Assembly: GCA_007133365.1 (NCBI GenBank)
Contig: SLMV01000029.1
Location: 276-64,275, forward strand
Direction: 5' to 3'
Origin: Clostridia bacterium
GTDB lineage: Bacteria; Bacillota; Sulfobacillia; SLMV01
DNA length: 64,000 bases
The translations under genes were made by a program, and so were the position numbers. Shown in pieces: positions 22,820 through 31,643 of the stretch. Position 1 is the first letter of the stretch, and every line of letters begins with the position of its first letter. Under the pieces are notes generated by a model that saw only the letters and a program-made list of their open reading frames with translations, searched no databases and was not told the origin of the DNA.

Positions 22820-23470
22820 TTAAAGGCCTTGCGAATTGCTCTGATCAAATCCCCGATCACCGCCAGTTCGGTGACGATGGAGTAAGTACAAACTCGCCAG
22901 TGTCTTGGCGTCGACCACGTTGATGGCGTTACGTAACACCCATTTCATCGTAAGGTCCGCTTCATCGCCCTGGGGCGGATCGTCTGCCATTTCTAAATCC
23001 GTCGCCAAAAAGACATATATAAATTCGCTCGCAAACCCTGGCGAGGAATAAAAACCTCCGAGATATTCCCAGTCCTTGGCCGAGTATCCGGTCTCCTCCG
23101 CCAGCTCACGTCTAGCACAGTCAAACGCCGTTTCACCCGAGTCGACTCGGCCAGCCGGTAATTCCCATAAATAAGCATCCACCGGATCCCGATATTGCTT
23201 TACCAGCAACAGCTCCTCATCATCATCGCCTTCCCCTCGTAAAGCGATAATTGCACAGGCATCCCGGGTAACAACACGTTCTCGAATCTCACCTCGAGCA
23301 TTGGCCCGCTCCTCGACATTGACGATTCGACCTGAAAACGTAAGCTCCCAGTTACACACCCTGCTGCTCCCTTCCTCGCCGTCGGCCGATAGTTGCCAAT
23401 TGCAAAAGGACGTCCCCATTGAACCCGCGAATGCCGGAGCAAAGCGTCCCGCTTTCTCGATGGTCGTCAC
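22820..23470 (-). CDS. nudF: NUDIX hydrolase, ADP-ribose pyrophosphatase-like
   Basis: Nudix box GxxxxxxxxxxxxxxRELxEETGY (DSGETAFDCARRELAEETGY). The N-terminus of the ORF is probably over-extended. Confidence 0.7.
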   Translation of the reverse strand: MTTIEKAGRFAPAFAGSMGTSFCNWQLSADGEEGSSRVCNWELTFSGRIVNVEERANARGEIRERVVTRDACAIIALRGEGDDDEELLLVKQYRDPVDAYLWELPAGRVDSGETAFDCARRELAEETGYSAKDWEYLGGFYSSPGFASEFIYVFLATDLEMADDPPQGDEADLTMKWVLRNAINVVDAKTLASLYLLHRHRTGGDRGFDQSNSQGL

Positions 23471-23750
23471 CTATTGCAAAAGCAAACTCGCAATCAATCC
23501 GGCAAACCCGTGTGGGGAAGGGGGCGGTTTGAACCTCTTTAGTCCCCCTAGCACTGGACATCCTTTTCGGTTTATTCATCATCAGGCCTCATCCGTGACA
23601 CCAAGCCCCAATGGCCAGTCCTAGGTCATTCCATCTTCTTCAATTGTCCAAAAGGATATAACCTCGCTTGGCGATGGCGACGATTAGATTTCGACTGCCG
23701 ATGGCCCCGGGAGAACACAAGGGGAGCCGCCGACGTCAGCACCAACCGTT

Positions 23751-23799
23751 GTTGGCACTCCAAAAAGGAAAGAGAAAGGGCGCGGAGCCGGTCTTCGGA
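23751..23799 (-). terminator. candidate intrinsic terminator after the 237-aa hypothetical gene
   Basis: GC-rich imperfect hairpin GGGGGCGGCATCCGAAGACCGGCTCCGCGCCC on the minus strand (plus 23768-23799), followed by UUUCUCUUUCCUUUUUGG (plus 23751-23767). Confidence 0.4.
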
Positions 23800-23869
23800 T
23801 GCCGCCCCCTTTCGAACCATTCGCTTCTCAATATGGCTCGTCGCCGAATCTAGGAACCCGAGCGCAATT

Positions 23870-24583
23870 TCAGGCCGTATCCGAGTCCAATAGTTCCCGT
23901 AACTTCGGATACACGGCCGCTAGCACTGCTTGAACGGCGCCAATGGCCCAATCACTATTGGCCAACGGAGAAGCGCCGGCCAAATACTCGACCTGCCCAC
24001 GCGGGCGCACCAGACAAAGATGACAGACTGCCACTTCTCCTAAACCCAGCATCGTCGTCAGAATCTCGTCAAGTTGCAGCGAATAACCGGGTATAAGCAA
24101 TCGATTGATCGCCTCAACGGCAGCCTTGCCGGGGATCCGAACCGGCCGGTTCCAGCCATAGGTCGAAACCGCATGCCCTTTTGCCTCTCGGCCTAGGTGA
24201 TCGCGAAGGAGAAGGTTGACCTCCTGGGTCTCATCACCCGGGCGGCTGGACAGCCCGAGCCTCACCAGCGTCAGGCTGGGAGCGACCGTTCTGGTTGGCA
24301 TCGCCATCGCCTCAGGCGATGCCACCTGAGCCACGCTCACCTTCTTATGATCGATCTCAAGTTTCCACTTCGCCGCCAGGGCACTTTCGATATCACGCAC
24401 AATTTGCTTCGGGTTGCGCTCCACATCCGCAAGCACATGAATCTCATCAACGGCACCCCAACTATTACAAACCACACGGCAAGCATTGATAGCGGTCAAC
24501 CCGGAAAGGAGGGCCTCTACTTCTTCCACGTCGATCGATTTTGTCACGTACCGACCCCTCCCCACATTTGTGACGAATCTCAC
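23870..24583 (-). CDS. hypothetical protein (no family recognised by me)
   Basis: 237-aa ORF in the same orientation as the oxidoreductase genes, 53 bp downstream of them. It has good coding appearance but no motifs I can name. There is weak internal similarity between its two halves. Confidence 0.3.
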   Translation of the reverse strand: MRFVTNVGRGRYVTKSIDVEEVEALLSGLTAINACRVVCNSWGAVDEIHVLADVERNPKQIVRDIESALAAKWKLEIDHKKVSVAQVASPEAMAMPTRTVAPSLTLVRLGLSSRPGDETQEVNLLLRDHLGREAKGHAVSTYGWNRPVRIPGKAAVEAINRLLIPGYSLQLDEILTTMLGLGEVAVCHLCLVRPRGQVEYLAGASPLANSDWAIGAVQAVLAAVYPKLRELLDSDTA

Positions 24584-24636
24584 CGGTAAACCCCGGCCTA
24601 ATTAAACCATCCGACGCCTCCCACAAATCCGTTTCA

Positions 24637-25179
24637 TCATTGTTGTTGATACAATTCGCGACCTCGCTCCAACGCCTTTTCATTGATCGGAATCAATTGA
24701 TGGTGACGTTCGGGAAGAACCGCCCGAAGCGAGGCCTTGATGGCATCAAAAGGCAGGTTGGGCAAACAACTTGCCAACGCCCCGAGCATTATCATATTGG
24801 CCACCCGAGCGTTGCCTAATCGGTCGGCCTCTTCCGTTACCGGTATTGTCACCACCTGGATATCATCCCGTTTCACCTCTTGATCGCAAAGTGAACTGTT
24901 GACGAACAAATGCCCGCTCGGCCGAACGGAGGATTCAAACTTCTCAAGGGACGGGAGATTCATCACGACGCACTCCGTCGGCTCCGTCACCACCGGTGAG
25001 CCGACCGGATCTTCCGATATGACCACACCGCAATTTGCTGTTCCCCCGCGCTGTTCCGGTCCATACGAGGGCATCCACGAGACATGAAGATCCTGCTCCA
25101 TTCCCGCGTGCGCCAATATTTGTCCCATCAACATGACGCCCTGGCCACCAAAGCCAGCAATGAGGATTTCATTCACCAT
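24637..25179 (-). CDS. 2-oxoacid:ferredoxin oxidoreductase gamma subunit
   Basis: ILIAGFGGQGV...GPEQRGGT..C motif characteristic of POR/KOR/VOR gamma subunits. 180 aa. Confidence 0.8.
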   Translation of the reverse strand: MVNEILIAGFGGQGVMLMGQILAHAGMEQDLHVSWMPSYGPEQRGGTANCGVVISEDPVGSPVVTEPTECVVMNLPSLEKFESSVRPSGHLFVNSSLCDQEVKRDDIQVVTIPVTEEADRLGNARVANMIMLGALASCLPNLPFDAIKASLRAVLPERHHQLIPINEKALERGRELYQQQ

Positions 25180-25927
25180 GATCCGTCACCGCCTCCGGGG
25201 TCTTGAGTTCGCCGATTGGGTAGTAGGGAATCATGTTCTCTTCCAGCCACTTCAGTGATTCGCCCGGCGTCATGCCCCAGTTAGTTGGGCAATTCGATAA
25301 CAATTCAACCATGGCAAAGCCAAGTCCTTCACGCTGCACTTCAAACGCCTTTTGCACCGACTGTTTCGCTTGTCGTATGTGCTTAACATCATGACACGAC
25401 ACGCGAGCAAGATACGCGACACCCGGCAATCCCTGGAGCATTTCGGACATCCGAAGCGGATGGCCTGTCAGCGACACATCGCGACCACTCGGCGAAGTCG
25501 TCGTGCGTTGACCTTCTAAGGTCGTGGGCGCCATTTGACCACCAGTCATGCCATAAATGGCATTATTGATAAAAATCACGGTGATCTTCTCACCCCGTGA
25601 AGCAGCGTGCATCGCTTCTGCCGCTCCGATGGAAGCGAGGTCACCATCTCCTTGGTAGGTAAAGACGATGCTATCCGGTCGCGCCCGCTTAATTCCGGTT
25701 GCCACTGCAGGGGCACGACCATGGGCGGCTTGCTGAAAGTCGCAATCAAAGTAATTGTAAGTAAACACAGAACAACCGACCGATGCTACACCAACGGCAC
25801 GCTCGGTGAGATCCAGTTCATCAAGGGCTTCCGCTACTAACCGATGAGCAATCCCGTGAAGGCAACCCGGACAATAGTGCGTCGCCTGATCACTCAACGC
25901 TTGGGGACGCGTAAATACCGCTTTCAT
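25169..25927 (-). CDS. 2-oxoacid:ferredoxin oxidoreductase beta subunit (TPP-binding)
   Basis: TPP motif GDGDLASIG...N, cluster-ligand Cys CPGC near the N-terminus, and an overlap with the gamma gene. Confidence 0.85.
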   Translation of the reverse strand: MKAVFTRPQALSDQATHYCPGCLHGIAHRLVAEALDELDLTERAVGVASVGCSVFTYNYFDCDFQQAAHGRAPAVATGIKRARPDSIVFTYQGDGDLASIGAAEAMHAASRGEKITVIFINNAIYGMTGGQMAPTTLEGQRTTTSPSGRDVSLTGHPLRMSEMLQGLPGVAYLARVSCHDVKHIRQAKQSVQKAFEVQREGLGFAMVELLSNCPTNWGMTPGESLKWLEENMIPYYPIGELKTPEAVTDHGE

Positions 25928-27030
25928 TTATGACCACCAACTTCCCGGATCAGAGTTTCCATTTTATCGCTAATGTCGGAAGGATGTGGCATCACCCCGC
26001 CGGCGGTGCCGATAAATTCAACCGGCAACTCGCTACCCACCGCCAGCCGAACATCCTCCACCATTTGCCCCATGCTCATTTCCACCACGACGTATCCGCG
26101 CGCTTTCTCGGCGAGCGAGGCAAATGCTTGGTCGGGGAAGGGCCAAAGACTGATCGGACGAACCAGTCCGACCGAATACCCGCGTTGCCGAAGCGATTCC
26201 AACGCTTTTTTCACGATTCGTGCGGTGGTACCATAAGCGGCAAAATAAAATTCCGCATCCTCATATAGGATTTCCCATCGGGTTTCATTCTCCTTCATCT
26301 GTCGATATTTCTCGCCCAACTTCTGGTTGTGTTCCCAGCACGCTTCAGCATCTAAATACAAAGAATTGATCAGATTGTTTTCTTTTCGCTTGCCACCGCG
26401 CCCAGTCGTGGCCCATTCTTTCACCGGCAACGTCTGGGGATCAAGAAGTTCGGGAAAGCGGACCGGTTCCATCATCTGTCCCATGATTCCGTCACCGAGA
26501 ATCATGACCGGATTGCGGTAGCGATCGGCGATATTAAACGATTCATAGGTAAGATCGACTAATTCCTGAAGGTCCGAAGGACCGAGCACCACCATGCGGT
26601 AGTCACCATGACCGCCGCCTTTCGTGGCTTGAAAATAATCGGATTGCGCCGGCTGAATGCTTCCCAAACCGGGTCCCCCTCGCACCATGTTCACGATGAC
26701 ACAGGGTAATTCCGAACCGGCCAAATAGGAGATTCCTTCCTGTTTCAGACTGATTCCGGGGCTTGACGATGAGGTCATCACCCGGACTCCGGCTCCGGCT
26801 GCGCCATACACCATATTGATGGCTGCCACTTCGCTTTCCGCCTGAAGATAAACACCTCCCAGTTCGGGAAGCCGCCATGACATATATGCCGGCAATTCAT
26901 TTTGGGGTGTAATTGGATATCCAAAAAAGTAGCGGCAACCTGCCCGCGCGGCCGCCTCTGCTACCGCCTCATTTCCTTTTACCAGCTGCAAGTCTTGATC
27001 CACAGTACCGCCCCTTTCGCTTCGATTCAC
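25924..27030 (-). CDS. 2-oxoacid:ferredoxin oxidoreductase alpha subunit
   Basis: N-terminal KGNEAVAEAAARAGCRYFFGYPITPQNE and domain II features. 368 aa. Overlaps the beta gene by 4 bp. Confidence 0.85.
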   Translation of the reverse strand: MNRSERGGTVDQDLQLVKGNEAVAEAAARAGCRYFFGYPITPQNELPAYMSWRLPELGGVYLQAESEVAAINMVYGAAGAGVRVMTSSSSPGISLKQEGISYLAGSELPCVIVNMVRGGPGLGSIQPAQSDYFQATKGGGHGDYRMVVLGPSDLQELVDLTYESFNIADRYRNPVMILGDGIMGQMMEPVRFPELLDPQTLPVKEWATTGRGGKRKENNLINSLYLDAEACWEHNQKLGEKYRQMKENETRWEILYEDAEFYFAAYGTTARIVKKALESLRQRGYSVGLVRPISLWPFPDQAFASLAEKARGYVVVEMSMGQMVEDVRLAVGSELPVEFIGTAGGVMPHPSDISDKMETLIREVGGHK

Positions 27031-27033
27031 CCA

Positions 27034-27261
27034 TTACTTTTTCGCTTCCTTTTCGGGCCGATAAACCTCGATGGCCACATCTGGACACATCATGGCACAA
27101 AAACCACAGCTGATGCATTTTTCCTCATCCGTCACCTGCACCGTCCGATATCCCTTACGGTTCATGGTATCCGATAGGTAAACGATATCGACGGGACAAA
27201 CCGAGGTGCACAAATCACACCCCTTACAACGTTCCGAGTTCAAAACCCATTTCGATCCCAT
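27034..27261 (-). CDS. 2-oxoacid:ferredoxin oxidoreductase delta subunit (2x[4Fe-4S] ferredoxin)
   Basis: Two CxxCxxCxxxCP motifs (CKGCDLCTSVCP and CISCGFCAMMCP). The ORF track extends to 27351, but an internal ATG at 27259-27261 with a GGAGGTG Shine-Dalgarno 5 nt upstream gives a canonical 75-aa delta subunit. This avoids overlap with the upstream NTPase gene. Confidence 0.75.
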   Translation of the reverse strand: MGSKWVLNSERCKGCDLCTSVCPVDIVYLSDTMNRKGYRTVQVTDEEKCISCGFCAMMCPDVAIEVYRPEKEAKK

Positions 27262-27292
27262 GCTGGCACCTCCAAAGCCTTTACCATGGTCA

Positions 27293-28012
27293 TTAACACC
27301 AATCCGGACGAAGCCGCGGGTTGATAACAATGAAATCAAGATCCCTCGCATCGCTCGCGATGTCGAGATCCTCAGACACTTGTTGTCCTTTAAGTACGTG
27401 CGCGCTTACTCCTAATCCTATCACAGGTATTCCTAACTGCCCGGCTGCTTGTTCCACCACACCGAGTCCCCAACGGATGTGATCCGCCTCGGTCTTAAAG
27501 CCCAGATGCGGATTGGCGATCAACCCGGCAATCGGCAATTTGGCCGCTTTTTCCAGCGCATAGTACGTGGCCACAATCCCGTCGCAAGAGGCGGTCTTCG
27601 GGCGGAAGGGATTAACGACCATCATGACCTGTGCTCTCGCCGCCTGCATCATTTGACGCACGCTCGCTAAGGGACGCGCTCCGACCTCGCTTCCCCCGAC
27701 ATCAACAATACAAACGTCGAATGCCGCCAGCGCCTGCGATAGACCGGCCGGCATAACGGGAAATTCGGTGCCGGCGTGAAAAGCCACCGGATGGACCACT
27801 TCCACTCCCTGAGCCGTTAGTTCCTCGATCAGCTCGCGGGAGCGGAAAAACGGGGTCACCAAGTCAAGATCCACCAATACCACCTTTGACTTTTCGGCAT
27901 CGCTCGCCGCCTCGATGGCAATTTGCATTGCGATTTCCGTTTTTCCGCTCCCGAACAGCCCCAAAACAACCAAGGGCCTCGAAGCCAGTCCTCGTAAAGA
28001 CACCTCAGACAC
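27293..28012 (-). CDS. uncharacterised P-loop NTPase, BioD/CobQ-N/Pta-N-like (SIMIBI, AAA_26-like) fold
   Basis: N-terminal Walker A GLFGSGKTE. About 95 aa later there is hhhhDxGG (FDVCIVDVGGSEV), followed by VMMVVNP...LPIAGLIANP, parallel to dethiobiotin-synthetase/CobQ-type proteins. The ORF track start (28129) overlaps leuDH-1 by 125 bp. GTG starts at 28010-28012 or 28001-28003 flank or overlap the leuDH-1 TGA, which suggests translational coupling. Confidence 0.5.
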   Translation of the reverse strand: MSEVSLRGLASRPLVVLGLFGSGKTEIAMQIAIEAASDAEKSKVVLVDLDLVTPFFRSRELIEELTAQGVEVVHPVAFHAGTEFPVMPAGLSQALAAFDVCIVDVGGSEVGARPLASVRQMMQAARAQVMMVVNPFRPKTASCDGIVATYYALEKAAKLPIAGLIANPHLGFKTEADHIRWGLGVVEQAAGQLGIPVIGLGVSAHVLKGQQVSEDLDIASDARDLDFIVINPRLRPDWC

Positions 28013-29075
28013 GAATTCGCTGTATTTGTCCGATGGCCTCAATTCGCGCTCTTGCGATTCGCTCGGCCGCCACATGGGTCGGAATGTCCTCTTTTTCGCT
28101 CGTTTCAAAGATGCGATGTAGCTGCCCACCGATTCCAGCTATCTTCTTATACGCGAGTTCCTTCGAGTAGCCGCCCGGATGAAACTCGTGGTAGACGTTT
28201 GTCACGCCCCCGCCATTGATGACAAAGTCCGTTGCATAAAGAATGCCCTTTTGCCTCAGCGCATCCCCGTGATGTCTTTCTTCCAGTTGATTGTTGGCCG
28301 CTCCGGCAACCACACGGCAGTTTAGTTGAGGCAAGGTCGTGTCGTTGATGACAGCACCGAGGGCACATGGAGAGTAGACATCGCAGGCGACGCCATAGAT
28401 GTCATCCGGATCGGCGACTTCGGCACCGAAATCACGGACCACTCGCTCAACCTTATCCTCATAAATATCCGAGACAATTAGCTCCGCACCGGCATCATGA
28501 AGGTAGTCGCAAAGCACATACCCGACACTTCCAACGCCTTGAATCGCCACCTTCGTGCCGGTCAGGTCAGACGAGCCATCAAGGTGTTCGATGGCGGCCT
28601 GAATCCCAACAAAAACGCCGTAAGCCGTGGCCGGTGAGGGATCACCCGATTTATGCATCAGACCGCCGGCAAACTCGGTCTCCTCCGCGACAATGGCCAA
28701 ATCTTCGGGACTCGTTCCGACATCCTCTGCCGTAATATAGCGGCCCCCCAGAGAATCGACAAAGCGGCCGTACGCACGCCACAGTTCCTCCGATTTGTCT
28801 TTGCGTGAATCCGCGATGATTACGCCTTTTCCGCCGCCAAGATTTAACCCCATCGCCGCACTCTTGTAGGTCATGCCTTGAGAAAGACGCAAGGCATCCA
28901 CAATGGCTTCTTCCTCGGTGTCGTAATTCCACATGCGCGTACCGCCCAGCGCCGGTCCCAACGTGGTATCGTGAATTGCGATGATGGCTTTGAGGCCGGA
29001 CACTTTATCATAGCAAAAGGCAATCTGCTCATGCCCCATATCGCTCATTAGCTCAAAAACTTCCATTAACGCCAC
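28005..29075 (-). CDS. Leu/Val/Phe-type amino-acid dehydrogenase (Glu/Leu/Phe/Val DH family), paralog 1
   Basis: 356 aa. Catalytic GGGKGVI motif. NAD GxGxxG (GVGSVG). N-terminal HEQIAFCYD typical of LeuDH/PheDH. The size matches LeuDH rather than GluDH. Confidence 0.8.
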   Translation of the reverse strand: MALMEVFELMSDMGHEQIAFCYDKVSGLKAIIAIHDTTLGPALGGTRMWNYDTEEEAIVDALRLSQGMTYKSAAMGLNLGGGKGVIIADSRKDKSEELWRAYGRFVDSLGGRYITAEDVGTSPEDLAIVAEETEFAGGLMHKSGDPSPATAYGVFVGIQAAIEHLDGSSDLTGTKVAIQGVGSVGYVLCDYLHDAGAELIVSDIYEDKVERVVRDFGAEVADPDDIYGVACDVYSPCALGAVINDTTLPQLNCRVVAGAANNQLEERHHGDALRQKGILYATDFVINGGGVTNVYHEFHPGGYSKELAYKKIAGIGGQLHRIFETSEKEDIPTHVAAERIARARIEAIGQIQRIRV

Positions 29076-29081
29076 TCCTCT

Positions 29082-30233
29082 CTAGGATTTTTCCGGGAGA
29101 TAAATCCGACTAATCCTACCCAATTTTTGAATGCGATCGGCCACAATGCGATCCGCGGCCTCAAACGGCGGGATATTCTCCTTCTCCGCCACTTCAAAGC
29201 AACCGAGCAATAGATCGTACAGATCCCCTGTTTTTTTCATCGCCCGATCCCAGTTAAATCCTTCAAGTTCATCCGCCACTTGGATCAAACCGCCGGCATT
29301 GACGATATAATCCGGTGCAAACAAAATGCCCTTTTCGTCCAGTTTCCGCCCAATGTCAGGATGCGATAATTGATTGTTCGCTGCACCCGCAATCACCCGA
29401 CACTTGAGGCGTTCGATACTATCCTCGTTGAGGACGCCTCCCATAGCGCAAGGGGCGAAAACATCACAATCAACATCGTAAATGGCATCCGGGGTCACGG
29501 CTTCAACTGGAAAACGCTGTTTGGTCTCTTGCACCACATTTTCATCAATATCCGTGACGATGACTTTGCAGCCGGCATCAATCAGATGCTCCACCAATCG
29601 TATCCCGACTTTGCCGACCCCCTGCACAGCGACGGTCTTATCCGCCAAGTTATCGGAACCAAACACCTGTCGAACGCCGGCCCGAATACCCTGGAGTACC
29701 CCGAAGGCCGTCGTCACGGAGGTGTTGCCACTTCCTCCGGCATATTCCGGGAGACCAACCAACCAATCGGTTTCCTGTCCAACGGTAACGAAGTCATCGA
29801 AGCTGGTCCCCATATCGGTACCGGTGATGACTCGACCCTTAAGGCCCTCAATGAAACGGCCAAACGCCCGAAGATAGGCCTCCGTTTTATCCGTCTCAGG
29901 ATCGCCCCATAACAGCGTCTTTCCGCCCCCGTGATTGCAGCGCGTGATCGCCGATTTTGCCGTCATCCCAAAGGACAAGCGCAGCACATCATCGATCGCT
30001 TCTTCTTCGGTTTCGTAAGGCCACATGCGACATCCCCCCAGGGCCGACCCCAAGGTGGAATCATGTATGGCCACCAATGCTTTGAGATTCGAATTCTCAT
30101 CGTAGGAAAGAATCAACTGCTCATGACCTTCCGCCGCCATCTTTTCAAAAATGCCCAAGGACAACTCTCCTTTCCCCAAGTCATTGTGTGTGGAATCCGG
30201 AAGTTTTGTTGATTTTCGCAATGTAGAACCCAA
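29082..30233 (-). CDS. Leu/Val/Phe-type amino-acid dehydrogenase, divergent paralog 2
   Basis: Roughly half its residues are identical to paralog 1 by eye. GGGK catalytic motif within an unusual NHGGGKTLLWGDP context. GVGKVG NAD motif. The likely true start is near 30160 (a TTG aligning with the paralog-1 N-terminus). Confidence 0.7.
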   Translation of the reverse strand: MGSTLRKSTKLPDSTHNDLGKGELSLGIFEKMAAEGHEQLILSYDENSNLKALVAIHDSTLGSALGGCRMWPYETEEEAIDDVLRLSFGMTAKSAITRCNHGGGKTLLWGDPETDKTEAYLRAFGRFIEGLKGRVITGTDMGTSFDDFVTVGQETDWLVGLPEYAGGSGNTSVTTAFGVLQGIRAGVRQVFGSDNLADKTVAVQGVGKVGIRLVEHLIDAGCKVIVTDIDENVVQETKQRFPVEAVTPDAIYDVDCDVFAPCAMGGVLNEDSIERLKCRVIAGAANNQLSHPDIGRKLDEKGILFAPDYIVNAGGLIQVADELEGFNWDRAMKKTGDLYDLLLGCFEVAEKENIPPFEAADRIVADRIQKLGRISRIYLPEKS

Positions 30234-30519
30234 AAAAATGGTTCGCTAGGAATATGCTGGATCACCTCAGGCCAAGGTTTCCTTAAATTCCAACCAGCGA
30301 ACCGCAAAAGACGTTCCAAATTCCTTGCGAATTCCTCACCAATCGTCAACTTCTTGCCATCGTCCGTTTCAGTAAAATACGGCCACGTTTCATCTGACAC
30401 CATCAATTCTACCTTATTGTTATTTTCGTCACGAGACCGCGCAATTCCTTCCCGATCGGACCAAACCCCCACCCCTCAATGTCATCGCTTGATTTAACAC
30501 GACCAACGTCAGAAGGATT

Positions 30520-31311
30520 CTATCGAGGCTTTCCAAATTGCATCCGGACCCGTTCGGCAACCAAAGCGATGAATTCCGAGTTCGTCGGTTTTCCTCGGGA
30601 TGACTTGGTAGAGTAACCAAAATATTCGGAAATGGCTTCCGGCCCCTCACGGGTAAAGGCAACGTTGATGGCGTGTCGGATGGCACGCTCAACCCGACTG
30701 GGGGTGCTGCCGTGATCCTCGGCCACCTTGGGGTAAAGCTTTGTGGTGATTCCATCAAGGAGGTTCGGATCATCGAGGGCGTGTAAGATGGCCGTTCGCA
30801 GATAGCGATAACCCTTTATATTGGCCGGGATCCCCAACATCTGGATGGTTTGGGTAATGGGTTTCGTCGGGTGATCCGCTGACGTCACCTCGACCTGCGC
30901 GCTCGCTTCGATTGACGGCTCTTTCGACCATTCGGGCCCAATGATCTCCCGAAGACGACGGCCAAACAATTCGAGGTCGAAAGGCTTTAACAGGAAGTAA
31001 TCAGCGCCTAGTTGGCTCGCCTTTTGGGTGATGTGCTCCTGACCAAACGCGGTGAGCACAAGACAGCGTGGTTTCTTATCGGCATCAATTGTCTGCAATC
31101 GCTCCAAAACCCCGATCCCATCGAGTCGCGGCATCACAACATCTAACACGAGCACATCGGGAACACACTTTTCGAGGGTGCAGAGCAGCTCGAGGCCGTC
31201 GTGCGCCACATCGACCAAATGTAAATCCGGTTGCTCCTCAATGTATTGTCCCAAGGTGCAACACAAATCAACATTATCGTCGGCAACCAAGATGGTAATG
31301 GGTCTTGTCAC
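30520..31311 (-). CDS. spo0A: stage 0 sporulation protein A (master sporulation response regulator)
   Basis: Receiver domain with the phospho-accepting Asp context (VLDVVMPRLDG). A Spo0A-specific C-terminal DNA-binding domain with GIPANIKGYRYLRTAILHALDDPNLLDGITTKLYPKVAEDHGSTPSRVERAIRHAI. Confidence 0.9.
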   Translation of the reverse strand: MTRPITILVADDNVDLCCTLGQYIEEQPDLHLVDVAHDGLELLCTLEKCVPDVLVLDVVMPRLDGIGVLERLQTIDADKKPRCLVLTAFGQEHITQKASQLGADYFLLKPFDLELFGRRLREIIGPEWSKEPSIEASAQVEVTSADHPTKPITQTIQMLGIPANIKGYRYLRTAILHALDDPNLLDGITTKLYPKVAEDHGSTPSRVERAIRHAINVAFTREGPEAISEYFGYSTKSSRGKPTNSEFIALVAERVRMQFGKPR

Positions 31312-31643
31312 CGCGCGCTCCCTCCTTCGCTCACAAATGGGATCAAGCCGGCCATTTTGACGGCCCTTTCATGGTTTTTATCCGAGTAAAGTAAGATCTT
31401 CGTCAGGGCCCCCAATTCTCCTGCCACCACGAACATTTGAGACCAAATCGAACCAAAATTAACGTCCTTTTACGTTTCCCTAAAGCGGGCCAGTGCAATA
31501 GAACTTGCAGGTGCTTTGACCATTCAATATGATTAAATTAAATCGTTTTGGGAAGATTTGATTAAAGGTGTATATCATGGCCAAATTTCTATCGAAGGAG
31601 TGTGAAAAGTCCTTAGGGCATCACGTTCGCCCGGGATTAAACT

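Follow-up and report, generated by a model that had tools for sequence, protein, structure and literature searches.

A 64,000-nucleotide stretch of DNA from a Clostridia bacterium (contig SLMV01000029.1, positions 276 to 64,275; here the window, whose coordinates are used throughout) encodes a P-loop NTPase of 239 amino acids on its minus strand, at 28012..27293. A sequence-only reading of the window had already recognized this gene, leaving its strand unstated, as that of an uncharacterised P-loop NTPase within an operon of dehydrogenase and 2-oxoacid:ferredoxin oxidoreductase (OFOR) genes, and the open reading frame (ORF) list and the sequence agree with that description. Judged by its sequence, the protein is a member of a large, unnamed family for which the databases hold no model. 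The best explanation of the data is that the family consists of catalytically competent NTPases of the SIMIBI class whose ancestral and dominant role would be tied to oxidoreductases of the VorB type. We propose, with a probability of roughly 0.45, that the NTPase is an accessory factor that acts transiently, driven by nucleotide, in the assembly, maturation or protection of these enzymes.

The NTPase family and its fold

Family size was gauged by a word-indexed search for proteins and by an exhaustive profile search for clusters at 50% identity. The former returned 1,221 database proteins that match the NTPase at E ≤ 1e-3 (best non-self E, 2.3e-54), and the latter 2,989, 2,295 and 1,102 clusters at E ≤ 1e-3, 1e-10 and 1e-30, respectively; on these scores the homology is far beyond chance. 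Nearly all members are 215-260 amino acids long and are either unnamed or annotated as "hypothetical".

Conservation was assessed in alignments of 36 and 338 family members. Eleven positions are invariant in the larger alignment (G18, G21, G23, K24, D48, D50, D104, G107, G111, N134 and R137), and E26, L49, P54, F56, R57, P85, V132, P138, N167, T174, G182 and W238 are conserved in at least 90% of its sequences. The resulting motif set, GxxGSGKTE / DLDxxxPxFRxR / DVGG / VxNxxRP / NPxLG...T followed by a C-terminal W, goes with a protein length of about 215-260 residues and is present in its entirety in the window protein, where the main motifs are located as follows:

27935..27961, minus strand: Walker A/P-loop, G18-L-F-G-S-G-K24-T-E26, defined from the alignments (G18, G21, G23 and K24 invariant, E26 98%)
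27836..27871, minus strand: switch-I-like motif after strand 2, D48-L-D50-x-x-x-P54-x-F56-R57-x-R59 (D48 and D50 invariant, F56 and R57 98-99%)
27692..27703, minus strand: Walker B/switch II, D104-V-G-G107, sequence GATGTCGGGGGA, closing a hydrophobic strand (D104 and G107 invariant; strand E100-104 in the model)
27599..27613, minus strand: family-specific motif N134-P-F-R137-P138 (N134 and R137 invariant)
27500..27514, minus strand: N167-P-H-L-G, at what motif spacing suggests is the base-recognition (G4) position of SIMIBI GTPases such as the signal recognition particle (SRP) proteins

Because the residues of the catalytic motifs are invariant in 338 members, the protein is predicted to be an intact, active NTPase and not a decayed domain. 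The sequence-only reading had identified both the Walker A motif GLFGSGKTE and a Walker-B-like motif, each of which is present, but it placed them about 95 residues apart; in the segment VCIVD104-V-G-G107, D104 lies 80 residues past K24. It had also set the protein apart from the deviant Walker A of ParA and MinD, correctly so, as the signature lysine of that motif is absent. The DLD sequence of switch I resembles the "DxD" of MinD and ParA, and the arginines of the same motif may have a role of their own. Guanine specificity is not indicated, since N167-P-H-L-G has no Asp at the G4 position.

We also looked for conserved cysteines and histidines in the 338 members, and found that Cys columns reach at most 17% and His columns at most 42%; with neither residue conserved, the family offers no ligand to a metal or an iron-sulfur (Fe-S) cluster. 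This bears on the idea of an Fe-S or metal chaperone resembling Mrp/ApbC/Nbp35, CooC or HypB/UreG that would deliver the three [4Fe-4S] clusters to the oxidoreductase. The ligand motifs CxxC, CxC and CH are all lacking, which makes such a chaperone extremely unlikely; the speculation in the sequence-only reading about Fe-S insertion is weakened accordingly, and a role as an Fe-S or metal carrier was rejected.

The fold was modeled with AlphaFold2 from the 36-sequence alignment (mean predicted local distance difference test score 86.9, predicted template modeling score 0.88). A Foldseek comparison of this model with the PDB returned almost only the GTPase domains of SRP, the SRP receptor and FlhF (best E 4.5e-8, template modeling score about 0.55), and in the structural ranking SRP-type, Get3 and Mrp-like proteins stand above BioD. 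A sequence search of the PDB with the single NTPase protein gave nothing significant. With a profile, the PDB sequences of ArsA, FleN, Soj, MinD and Ffh are matched only over the segment from the P-loop to DLD, and the matches to FleN, MinD, Soj and ArsA cover residues 6-45 or so at E values of 1e-4 to 1e-2.

No Pfam or NCBIfam model matches the window NTPase above its cutoff. The best Pfam matches are CbiA (PF01656; cutoff 25.4 bits) and nSTAND_NTPase5, each at 17.5 bits, and the best NCBIfam match is Ffh, at 18 bits; the NCBIfam BioD model gives no match. When the 36 members were scanned at E ≤ 1, CbiA was found in 34 (best E 1.7e-7), ParA PF10609/NUBPL in 28 and SRP54 in 15. PF13500 (AAA_26) and DUF1611 match neither the window protein nor appear among the 25 families most often matched by the 36 members at that threshold. 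The NTPase is thus a distinct family of the SIMIBI class, which also holds BioD, CobQ/CbiA, MinD and SRP; it combines a standard Walker A motif with a MinD-like DLD switch I and, in the model, an overall shape nearest that of the SRP-type GTPases. Consequently, the specific assignment of the sequence-only reading to the BioD, CobQ and Pta N-terminal "AAA_26" domains does not hold beyond the shared class: of the Pfam families it had named for comparison, AAA_26 and DUF1611 are without a match, together with the BioD model, and CbiA recurs as a generic match that stays under its cutoff in the window protein.

These results bear on a further possibility, that the protein is a small-molecule enzyme of the BioD, CobQ, PyrG or FTHFS kind, i.e., an ATP-dependent kinase or ligase working through a phosphorylated intermediate. 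One can imagine a step that activates CO2 or an acyl group for the carboxylating direction of the oxidoreductase, or a folate-related step. We regard this as quite improbable, given that the family has no AAA_26 or BioD match and no amidotransferase domain, that SRP-type and Get3-type proteins outrank such enzymes structurally, and that the pathway from amino acid through 2-oxoacid, acyl-CoA and acyl-phosphate to acid is complete without the NTPase.

Linkage to VorB-type oxidoreductases and proposed role

A pattern scan for the NTPase, with one genome per species, gave at least 598 confirmed loci, of which the best 80 were fetched. Their ORFs were labeled by BLASTP with the window proteins, and an NTPase counted as linked if a VorB-type alpha gene lay no more than 4.5 kb away on its strand. 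Among the 76 loci with more than 1.5 kb of sequence downstream of the NTPase (L048 being left out of the count as too short), 70 encode a VorB-type alpha subunit downstream on the same strand. The usual order past the NTPase is delta, alpha, beta, gamma, with delta starting 10-150 nt after the NTPase stop. These loci come from about ten phyla, including Atribacterota, Bacillota, Desulfobacterota, Planctomycetota, Chloroflexota, Zixibacteria, Bacteroidota (Ignavibacteria), Actinomycetota and Myxococcota. A relative of the window organism (L088) has the same order from Spo0A through two dehydrogenases, NTPase, delta, alpha and beta to gamma, with an NTPase 42% identical to that of the window.

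The genes upstream are variable: phosphotransbutyrylase (Ptb) or Buk genes occur in 19 of 66 loci, a sigma-54 activator in 11, leucine dehydrogenase in five and Spo0A in two, and in Desulfobacterota the upstream genes are unrelated and divergent (NamZ, RNase H, PlsB). The oxidoreductase is the only constant partner of the NTPase, in a linkage that is both tight and ancient. The recurrence of homologs beside OFOR genes rules out a random distribution, and the notion of a stray BioD from a split biotin operon, which the sequence-only reading had itself raised as a way of being wrong, finds neither a BioD model match nor a context of biotin genes. Among 258 family proteins, we found no fusion of the NTPase to ferredoxin or to an oxidoreductase subunit; the only fusions are to FolC.

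In the Anaerolineae, a phosphotransbutyrylase-like gene of about 300 codons, identified from its N-terminal sequence only, lies between the NTPase and delta genes (L011 5333-6238, L032 6421-7362, L070 1530-2435). A second Ptb-like ORF is found upstream in L011.

Six loci have no oxidoreductase gene within 10 kb of the NTPase. Five of them (L034, L040, L049, L061 and L062) belong to a Christensenellales-type clade, and rsmF adjoins the NTPase in the two whose neighbors were examined (L040 and L062). A further locus that falls in this clade in a rough tree, L079, has delta-alpha-beta genes 3 kb downstream, past an ABC-transporter-like segment. The sixth unlinked locus, L053, encodes a FolC::NTPase fusion. 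A search of representatives had found four such fusions of 667-681 amino acids, and a dedicated search extended this to about a dozen clusters at 90% identity (662-681 amino acids), all from uncultured Bacillota. The fusions located are:

L084, 2836-4848: FolC::NTPase fusion
L086, 568-2571: FolC::NTPase fusion
L170, 10001-12034: FolC::NTPase fusion
L171, 10001-11989: FolC::NTPase fusion
L053, 8399-10720: FolC::NTPase fusion

All NTPase motifs are intact in these fusions. In the rough tree they branch beside Atribacterota sequences and beside L056 and L077, in which an unfused folC gene precedes NTPase, delta, alpha, beta and gamma; the fusions are therefore nested among oxidoreductase-linked members. 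In other proteins FolC is joined instead to HhH-GPD, an unrelated protein whose gene adjoins folC on the upstream side in L170. We read the FolC::NTPase fusions as a by-product of adjacency rather than a sign of shared function, and fusions that look incidental in this way count against a small-molecule enzyme.

Could the NTPase be a general housekeeping or positioning ATPase, similar to ParA and MinD or to the anti-activator FleN, with its place beside the oxidoreductase no more than synteny? Some members do lie in housekeeping loci (valS-folC, or beside rsmF), the first 45 or so residues show profile matches to FleN, MinD, Soj and ArsA, and a sigma-54 activator is encoded upstream in the 11 loci mentioned above. 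The adjacency, however, has survived in about ten phyla even though NTPase identity has fallen to about 35%, the contexts without oxidoreductase are nested, derived branches of the rough tree, the deviant Walker A lysine is missing, and neither the window nor most loci have the sigma-54 activator. Taken together, these observations render mere synteny highly improbable. The more specific candidate, a FleN-like anti-activator of the sigma-54 activator encoded upstream in Atribacterota and Clostridia, was rejected on the same count of activators (11/66), on the lack of a sigma-54 promoter match near the operon in the window and on the unrelated upstream genes of the Desulfobacterota.

The linkage was also approached from the side of the oxidoreductase. 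In cultured species, an alpha-based search gave three operons (in Natranaerobius thermophilus, Alkalicella caledoniensis and a Sporanaerobacter contig), and all three have a gene for a protein of 217-252 amino acids before delta that is unannotated or carries a weak CbiA match. A broader sample consisted of 80 metagenome loci (L090-L169) collected with a VorB-type alpha profile, whose alpha subunits are 53-63% identical to that of the window. Of these, the 65 with at least 1.1 kb upstream could be judged: 32 operons have the NTPase and 33 do not. A search of the 33 for a weak NTPase homolog, with the HMMER filters off, found none beside the operon; its sole match (L144, 28.5 bits), on the opposite strand about 0.4 kb upstream, is probably a different SIMIBI protein. 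Nor do these 33 loci share a replacement gene, the upstream genes being Dxs, an aminotransferase and others. In a neighbor-joining tree of alpha, the loci without NTPase form two blocks (12 and nine leaves), three pairs and six singletons. Since only 32 of 65 operons carry the NTPase, and those without it fall mostly in separate alpha sub-clades, the NTPase is clade-specific: it is co-inherited with certain enzyme sub-clades, and the enzyme type as such does not require it.

Where all five genes are present (64 loci), the NTPase has a median identity of 35% to its window counterpart, compared with 47% for delta, 55% for alpha, 63% for beta and 47% for gamma. Of the five components it is under the least constraint, and this faster divergence is more in keeping with an accessory factor than with a core subunit; the patchy distribution would likewise fit an accessory role.

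The same data weigh on the possibility of a true fifth subunit, stoichiometric with the others and acting either structurally or as a sensor of nucleotide or energy charge, for which the extra subunit of the five-subunit enzymes of Aquificae and the regulatory BioD-like N-domain of Pta would be analogues. In support of a subunit, the NTPase gene stands directly before delta in most loci, in the window only 31 nt part it from delta and its start overlaps the stop of the gene upstream, and the five genes travel together across phyla. Nevertheless, we find a fifth subunit rather unlikely: about half of the VorB-type operons with alpha at 53-63% identity do without the NTPase, which diverges much faster than any subunit and is kept without oxidoreductase in the FolC fusions and the rsmF-linked loci, and in the Aquificae enzymes the known fifth subunit resembles CdhB and is not a P-loop protein (PMC10052474). 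The sequence-only reading had the NTPase made stoichiometrically with the pathway enzymes, a deduction from the gene overlap; the absence of the gene from about half of the close VorB-type operons argues against an obligatory stoichiometric subunit.

As an accessory factor, the NTPase would bind nucleotide and dimerize, as other SIMIBI proteins do. ATP would be preferred over GTP, because the guanine-specifying Asp is absent. The dimer would form a composite active site from the invariant Asp and Arg residues, with R57/R59 or R137 as candidate residues supplied in trans. The NTP cycle would then allow a transient action on the oxidoreductase, presumably by direct contact, in the assembly, maturation or protection of delta-alpha-beta-gamma. 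On this model the protein would be neither a permanent fifth subunit nor a catalyst acting on a small molecule.

Several points weigh against an accessory factor of this kind. The enzyme type can evidently do without the NTPase, as half of the related VorB-type operons have neither it nor a replacement; the archaeal four-subunit VORs, such as those of Pyrococcus, are active with no such protein. The Christensenellales-type clade adjoins rsmF with no VOR genes nearby, and the FolC::NTPase fusions belong to a housekeeping locus, valS-folC-SPOR, where the 6-10 kb examined contain no oxidoreductase (in two of these loci it is followed by a HydS-like sensory hydrogenase and a HydABC cluster). The domain can thus be retained for long away from oxidoreductase genes, and a more general role is therefore possible. 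No conserved Cys or His offers an obvious means of carrying an Fe-S cluster or metal on which "maturation" could act, and the role is predicted from gene linkage and sequence.

A more radical alternative is that the NTPase is a fifth component that couples NTP hydrolysis to the chemistry of the oxidoreductase, for example by clamping or gating the ferredoxin-like delta to drive reductive carboxylation, a thermodynamically unfavorable reaction (acyl-CoA + CO2 -> 2-oxoacid), or by reactivating the enzyme after oxidative or radical inactivation. This is compatible with the tight linkage, the catalytically intact motifs and the fact that no cofactor-carrier role can be assigned; we nonetheless consider it very unlikely. 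If true, it would be the first nucleotide-dependent 2-oxoacid:ferredoxin oxidoreductase system.

The gene and its operon in the window

The minus strand of the window encodes, in order, Spo0A, two dehydrogenases, the NTPase, delta, alpha, beta, gamma and an ORF of 237 amino acids:

31311..30520, minus strand: Spo0A, at the head of the gene order
29082..30233, minus strand: amino-acid dehydrogenase 2, first gene of the cluster (Pfam ELFV_dehydrog_N and ELFV_dehydrog; start codon uncertain)
28005..29075, minus strand: amino-acid dehydrogenase 1, Leu/Val/Phe type, predicted to supply 2-oxoacids (Pfam ELFV_dehydrog_N and ELFV_dehydrog)
28005..28012, minus strand: start/stop overlap GTGTCTGA, read from the sequence (NTPase GTG 28012..28010, dehydrogenase TGA 28007..28005)
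27293..28012, minus strand: SIMIBI-class NTPase, GTG start at 28012 and TAA stop at 27295..27293, from homologs and the AlphaFold2 model (the start may lie a few codons downstream)
27034..27261, minus strand: OFOR delta, 75 amino acids with two 4Fe-4S motifs (Pfam Fer4 families, NCBIfam OorD/PorD_KorD), with its own GGAGGTG Shine-Dalgarno sequence at about 27268-27274
25924..27030, minus strand: OFOR alpha, VorB type (NCBIfam NF005507 VorB, 532.6 bits, cutoff 399; Pfam POR_N and PFOR_II)
25169..25927, minus strand: OFOR beta, thiamine pyrophosphate-binding (Pfam TPP_enzyme_C; NCBIfam beta-subunit families all under cutoff)
24637..25179, minus strand: OFOR gamma (Pfam POR PF01558, E 4e-38)
23870-24583, minus strand: ORF of 237 amino acids directly downstream of gamma (no Pfam or NCBIfam family)

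The overlap of the NTPase start with the dehydrogenase stop, proposed from the sequence earlier, is confirmed, as the TGA at 28007..28005 falls within the first 8 nt of the NTPase gene (minus strand, ...GAATTC GTG TCT GAG GTG...). The L088 orthologue of the NTPase begins 3 nt past the dehydrogenase stop. At the other end, the delta ATG (27261..27259) is 31 nt past the NTPase stop and is preceded by GGAGGTG at about 27274..27268. The ORF list extends the NTPase frame to 27293..28129 on the minus strand (278 amino acids) from an in-frame GTG further upstream. Candidate starts within the gene are GTG 28012, GTG 28003 and the TTG codons 14 and 17, none of them with a good Shine-Dalgarno sequence; the exact start among these is uncertain from the sequence, and the Walker A/P-loop is kept with any of them. 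Homologs align from about residue 11 and all have 10-25 residues ahead of the P-loop.

The deposited protein for this gene (P0001, 211 amino acids, 27293-27928) begins at Met29 (MQIAIEA...), past the Walker A motif. The P-loop is present in every NTPase homolog, among them the orthologue P0008 in the form given by its own record, and the deposited start of P0001 is almost certainly wrong on this comparison. A gene model that begins past the P-loop hides the motif from annotation. A search for a second copy of the NTPase found no paralogue within the window; P0008 is an orthologue from a related organism.

The two dehydrogenases upstream (28005-30233, minus strand) are tandem paralogs of the Glu/Leu/Phe/Val type, and the L088 relative has the same pair. 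For both, the best NCBIfam model is the tryptophan dehydrogenase ScyB (413.6 and 355.1 bits); with scores this far under its cutoff of 600, we do not assign a substrate specificity. For the beta subunit, the best NCBIfam beta model scores 117.6 bits against a cutoff of 402, whereas alpha passes the VorB model; the curated libraries seem to have no model for the beta subunit of this oxidoreductase type. ORFs of 230 and 247 amino acids also follow gamma in the two closest genome loci, L002 and L003, and the 237-residue ORF may belong to the operon in the lineage of the window. A scan of 23400-31600 for promoters and terminators gave nothing over the expectation from shuffled sequence, and a scan for sigma-54 promoters near the operon gave no match over chance.

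In the window, as in L010, L074 and L088, the gene for Spo0A closely precedes the dehydrogenase/ptb-buk/oxidoreductase cluster. On the basis of this Spo0A-adjacent synteny, we compare the operon with the bkd operon of Bacillus subtilis, also close to spo0A, of which it looks like an anaerobic counterpart. By that analogy, it looks as though a ferredoxin-dependent enzyme replaces the branched-chain 2-oxoacid dehydrogenase complex of a bkd-type operon.

Comparison with known systems

2-oxoacid:ferredoxin oxidoreductases are central to anaerobic amino-acid fermentation, to the production of branched-chain fatty acids by bacteria of the gut and of sediments, and to reductive CO2 fixation. As far as we know, nothing beyond the general Fe-S machinery and thiamine diphosphate is considered necessary for them. 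A literature search found no description of a P-loop protein in these operons, and reviews and proteomic studies of Clostridioides difficile mention only vorCBA. The NTPase represents a new, unmodeled family; it would equip an enzyme class with a nucleotide-dependent accessory of a kind that the class is not known to possess. At least 2,300 clusters in about ten phyla, fixed before one type of oxidoreductase operon, suggest an overlooked layer of assembly, protection or regulation, and a need for the NTPase could explain the poor activity of heterologously expressed oxidoreductases of this type.

Other OFOR operons likewise encode an extra protein, namely the fifth subunit of the Aquificae enzymes and PorE and PorF of methanogens. 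The order NTPase-delta-alpha-beta-gamma recalls porEDABG. PorE and PorF are Cys-rich Fe-S proteins and not P-loop NTPases. Given the matching gene order, we considered whether the NTPase is the "epsilon" subunit of the five-subunit pyruvate and 2-oxoglutarate:ferredoxin oxidoreductases (POR/OGOR) of Hydrogenobacter and Aquifex, and rejected this, as the fifth subunit of the Aquificae enzymes is similar to the epsilon subunit of CO dehydrogenase/acetyl-CoA synthase (PMC10052474). The NTPase is instead a P-loop protein, and no CO-dehydrogenase family is found among its Pfam matches.

Within the SIMIBI class, the SRP-type GTPases (Ffh/SRP54, FtsY, FlhF) have the closest three-dimensional similarity. 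The NTPase differs from them in lacking an N-domain (it begins about 17 residues before the P-loop), in having DVGG in place of DTAGR, and in having N-P-[N/H]-L (N-P-H-L in the window protein) instead of the guanine motif TKxD, which is absent from the family. The Pfam SRP54 model (PF00448) scores 13.9 bits against a cutoff of 22.7, and the NTPase has no link to membranes or ribosomes.

By sequence, the nearest relatives are the MinD/ParA/Mrp/NifH group (PF01656, PF10609). The acidic DxD switch I after strand 2 is shared with ParA and MinD, D48-L-D50 being invariant in the 338 members, but the deviant Walker A lysine (xKGGxGK[ST]) is replaced by L in the window protein and by F or Y in the family. 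The Cys cluster ligands of the group are also missing, and FRxR, VxNxxRP and NPxLG are specific to the NTPase family. The likeness to BioD/AAA_26 is limited to the SIMIBI alpha/beta fold with a standard P-loop; the P-loop context differs, and no biotin genes (bioA, bioF, bioB) are nearby. Compared with the CobQ/CobB amidotransferases, the NTPase is a single-domain protein of 239 residues with no match to the glutamine amidotransferase domain and a CbiA score of 17.5 bits against 25.4.

The working analogy for the mechanism is provided by CooC (for carbon monoxide dehydrogenase), HypB, UreG and MeaB (for methylmalonyl-CoA mutase). These are likewise small P-loop NTPases that are encoded beside, and co-inherited with, the enzyme they serve, and like the NTPase they are patchily present across lineages. 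They differ in carrying metal or cofactor ligands and, in the G3E group, the NKxD motif; the NTPase has none of these, and no cofactor can be named for it.

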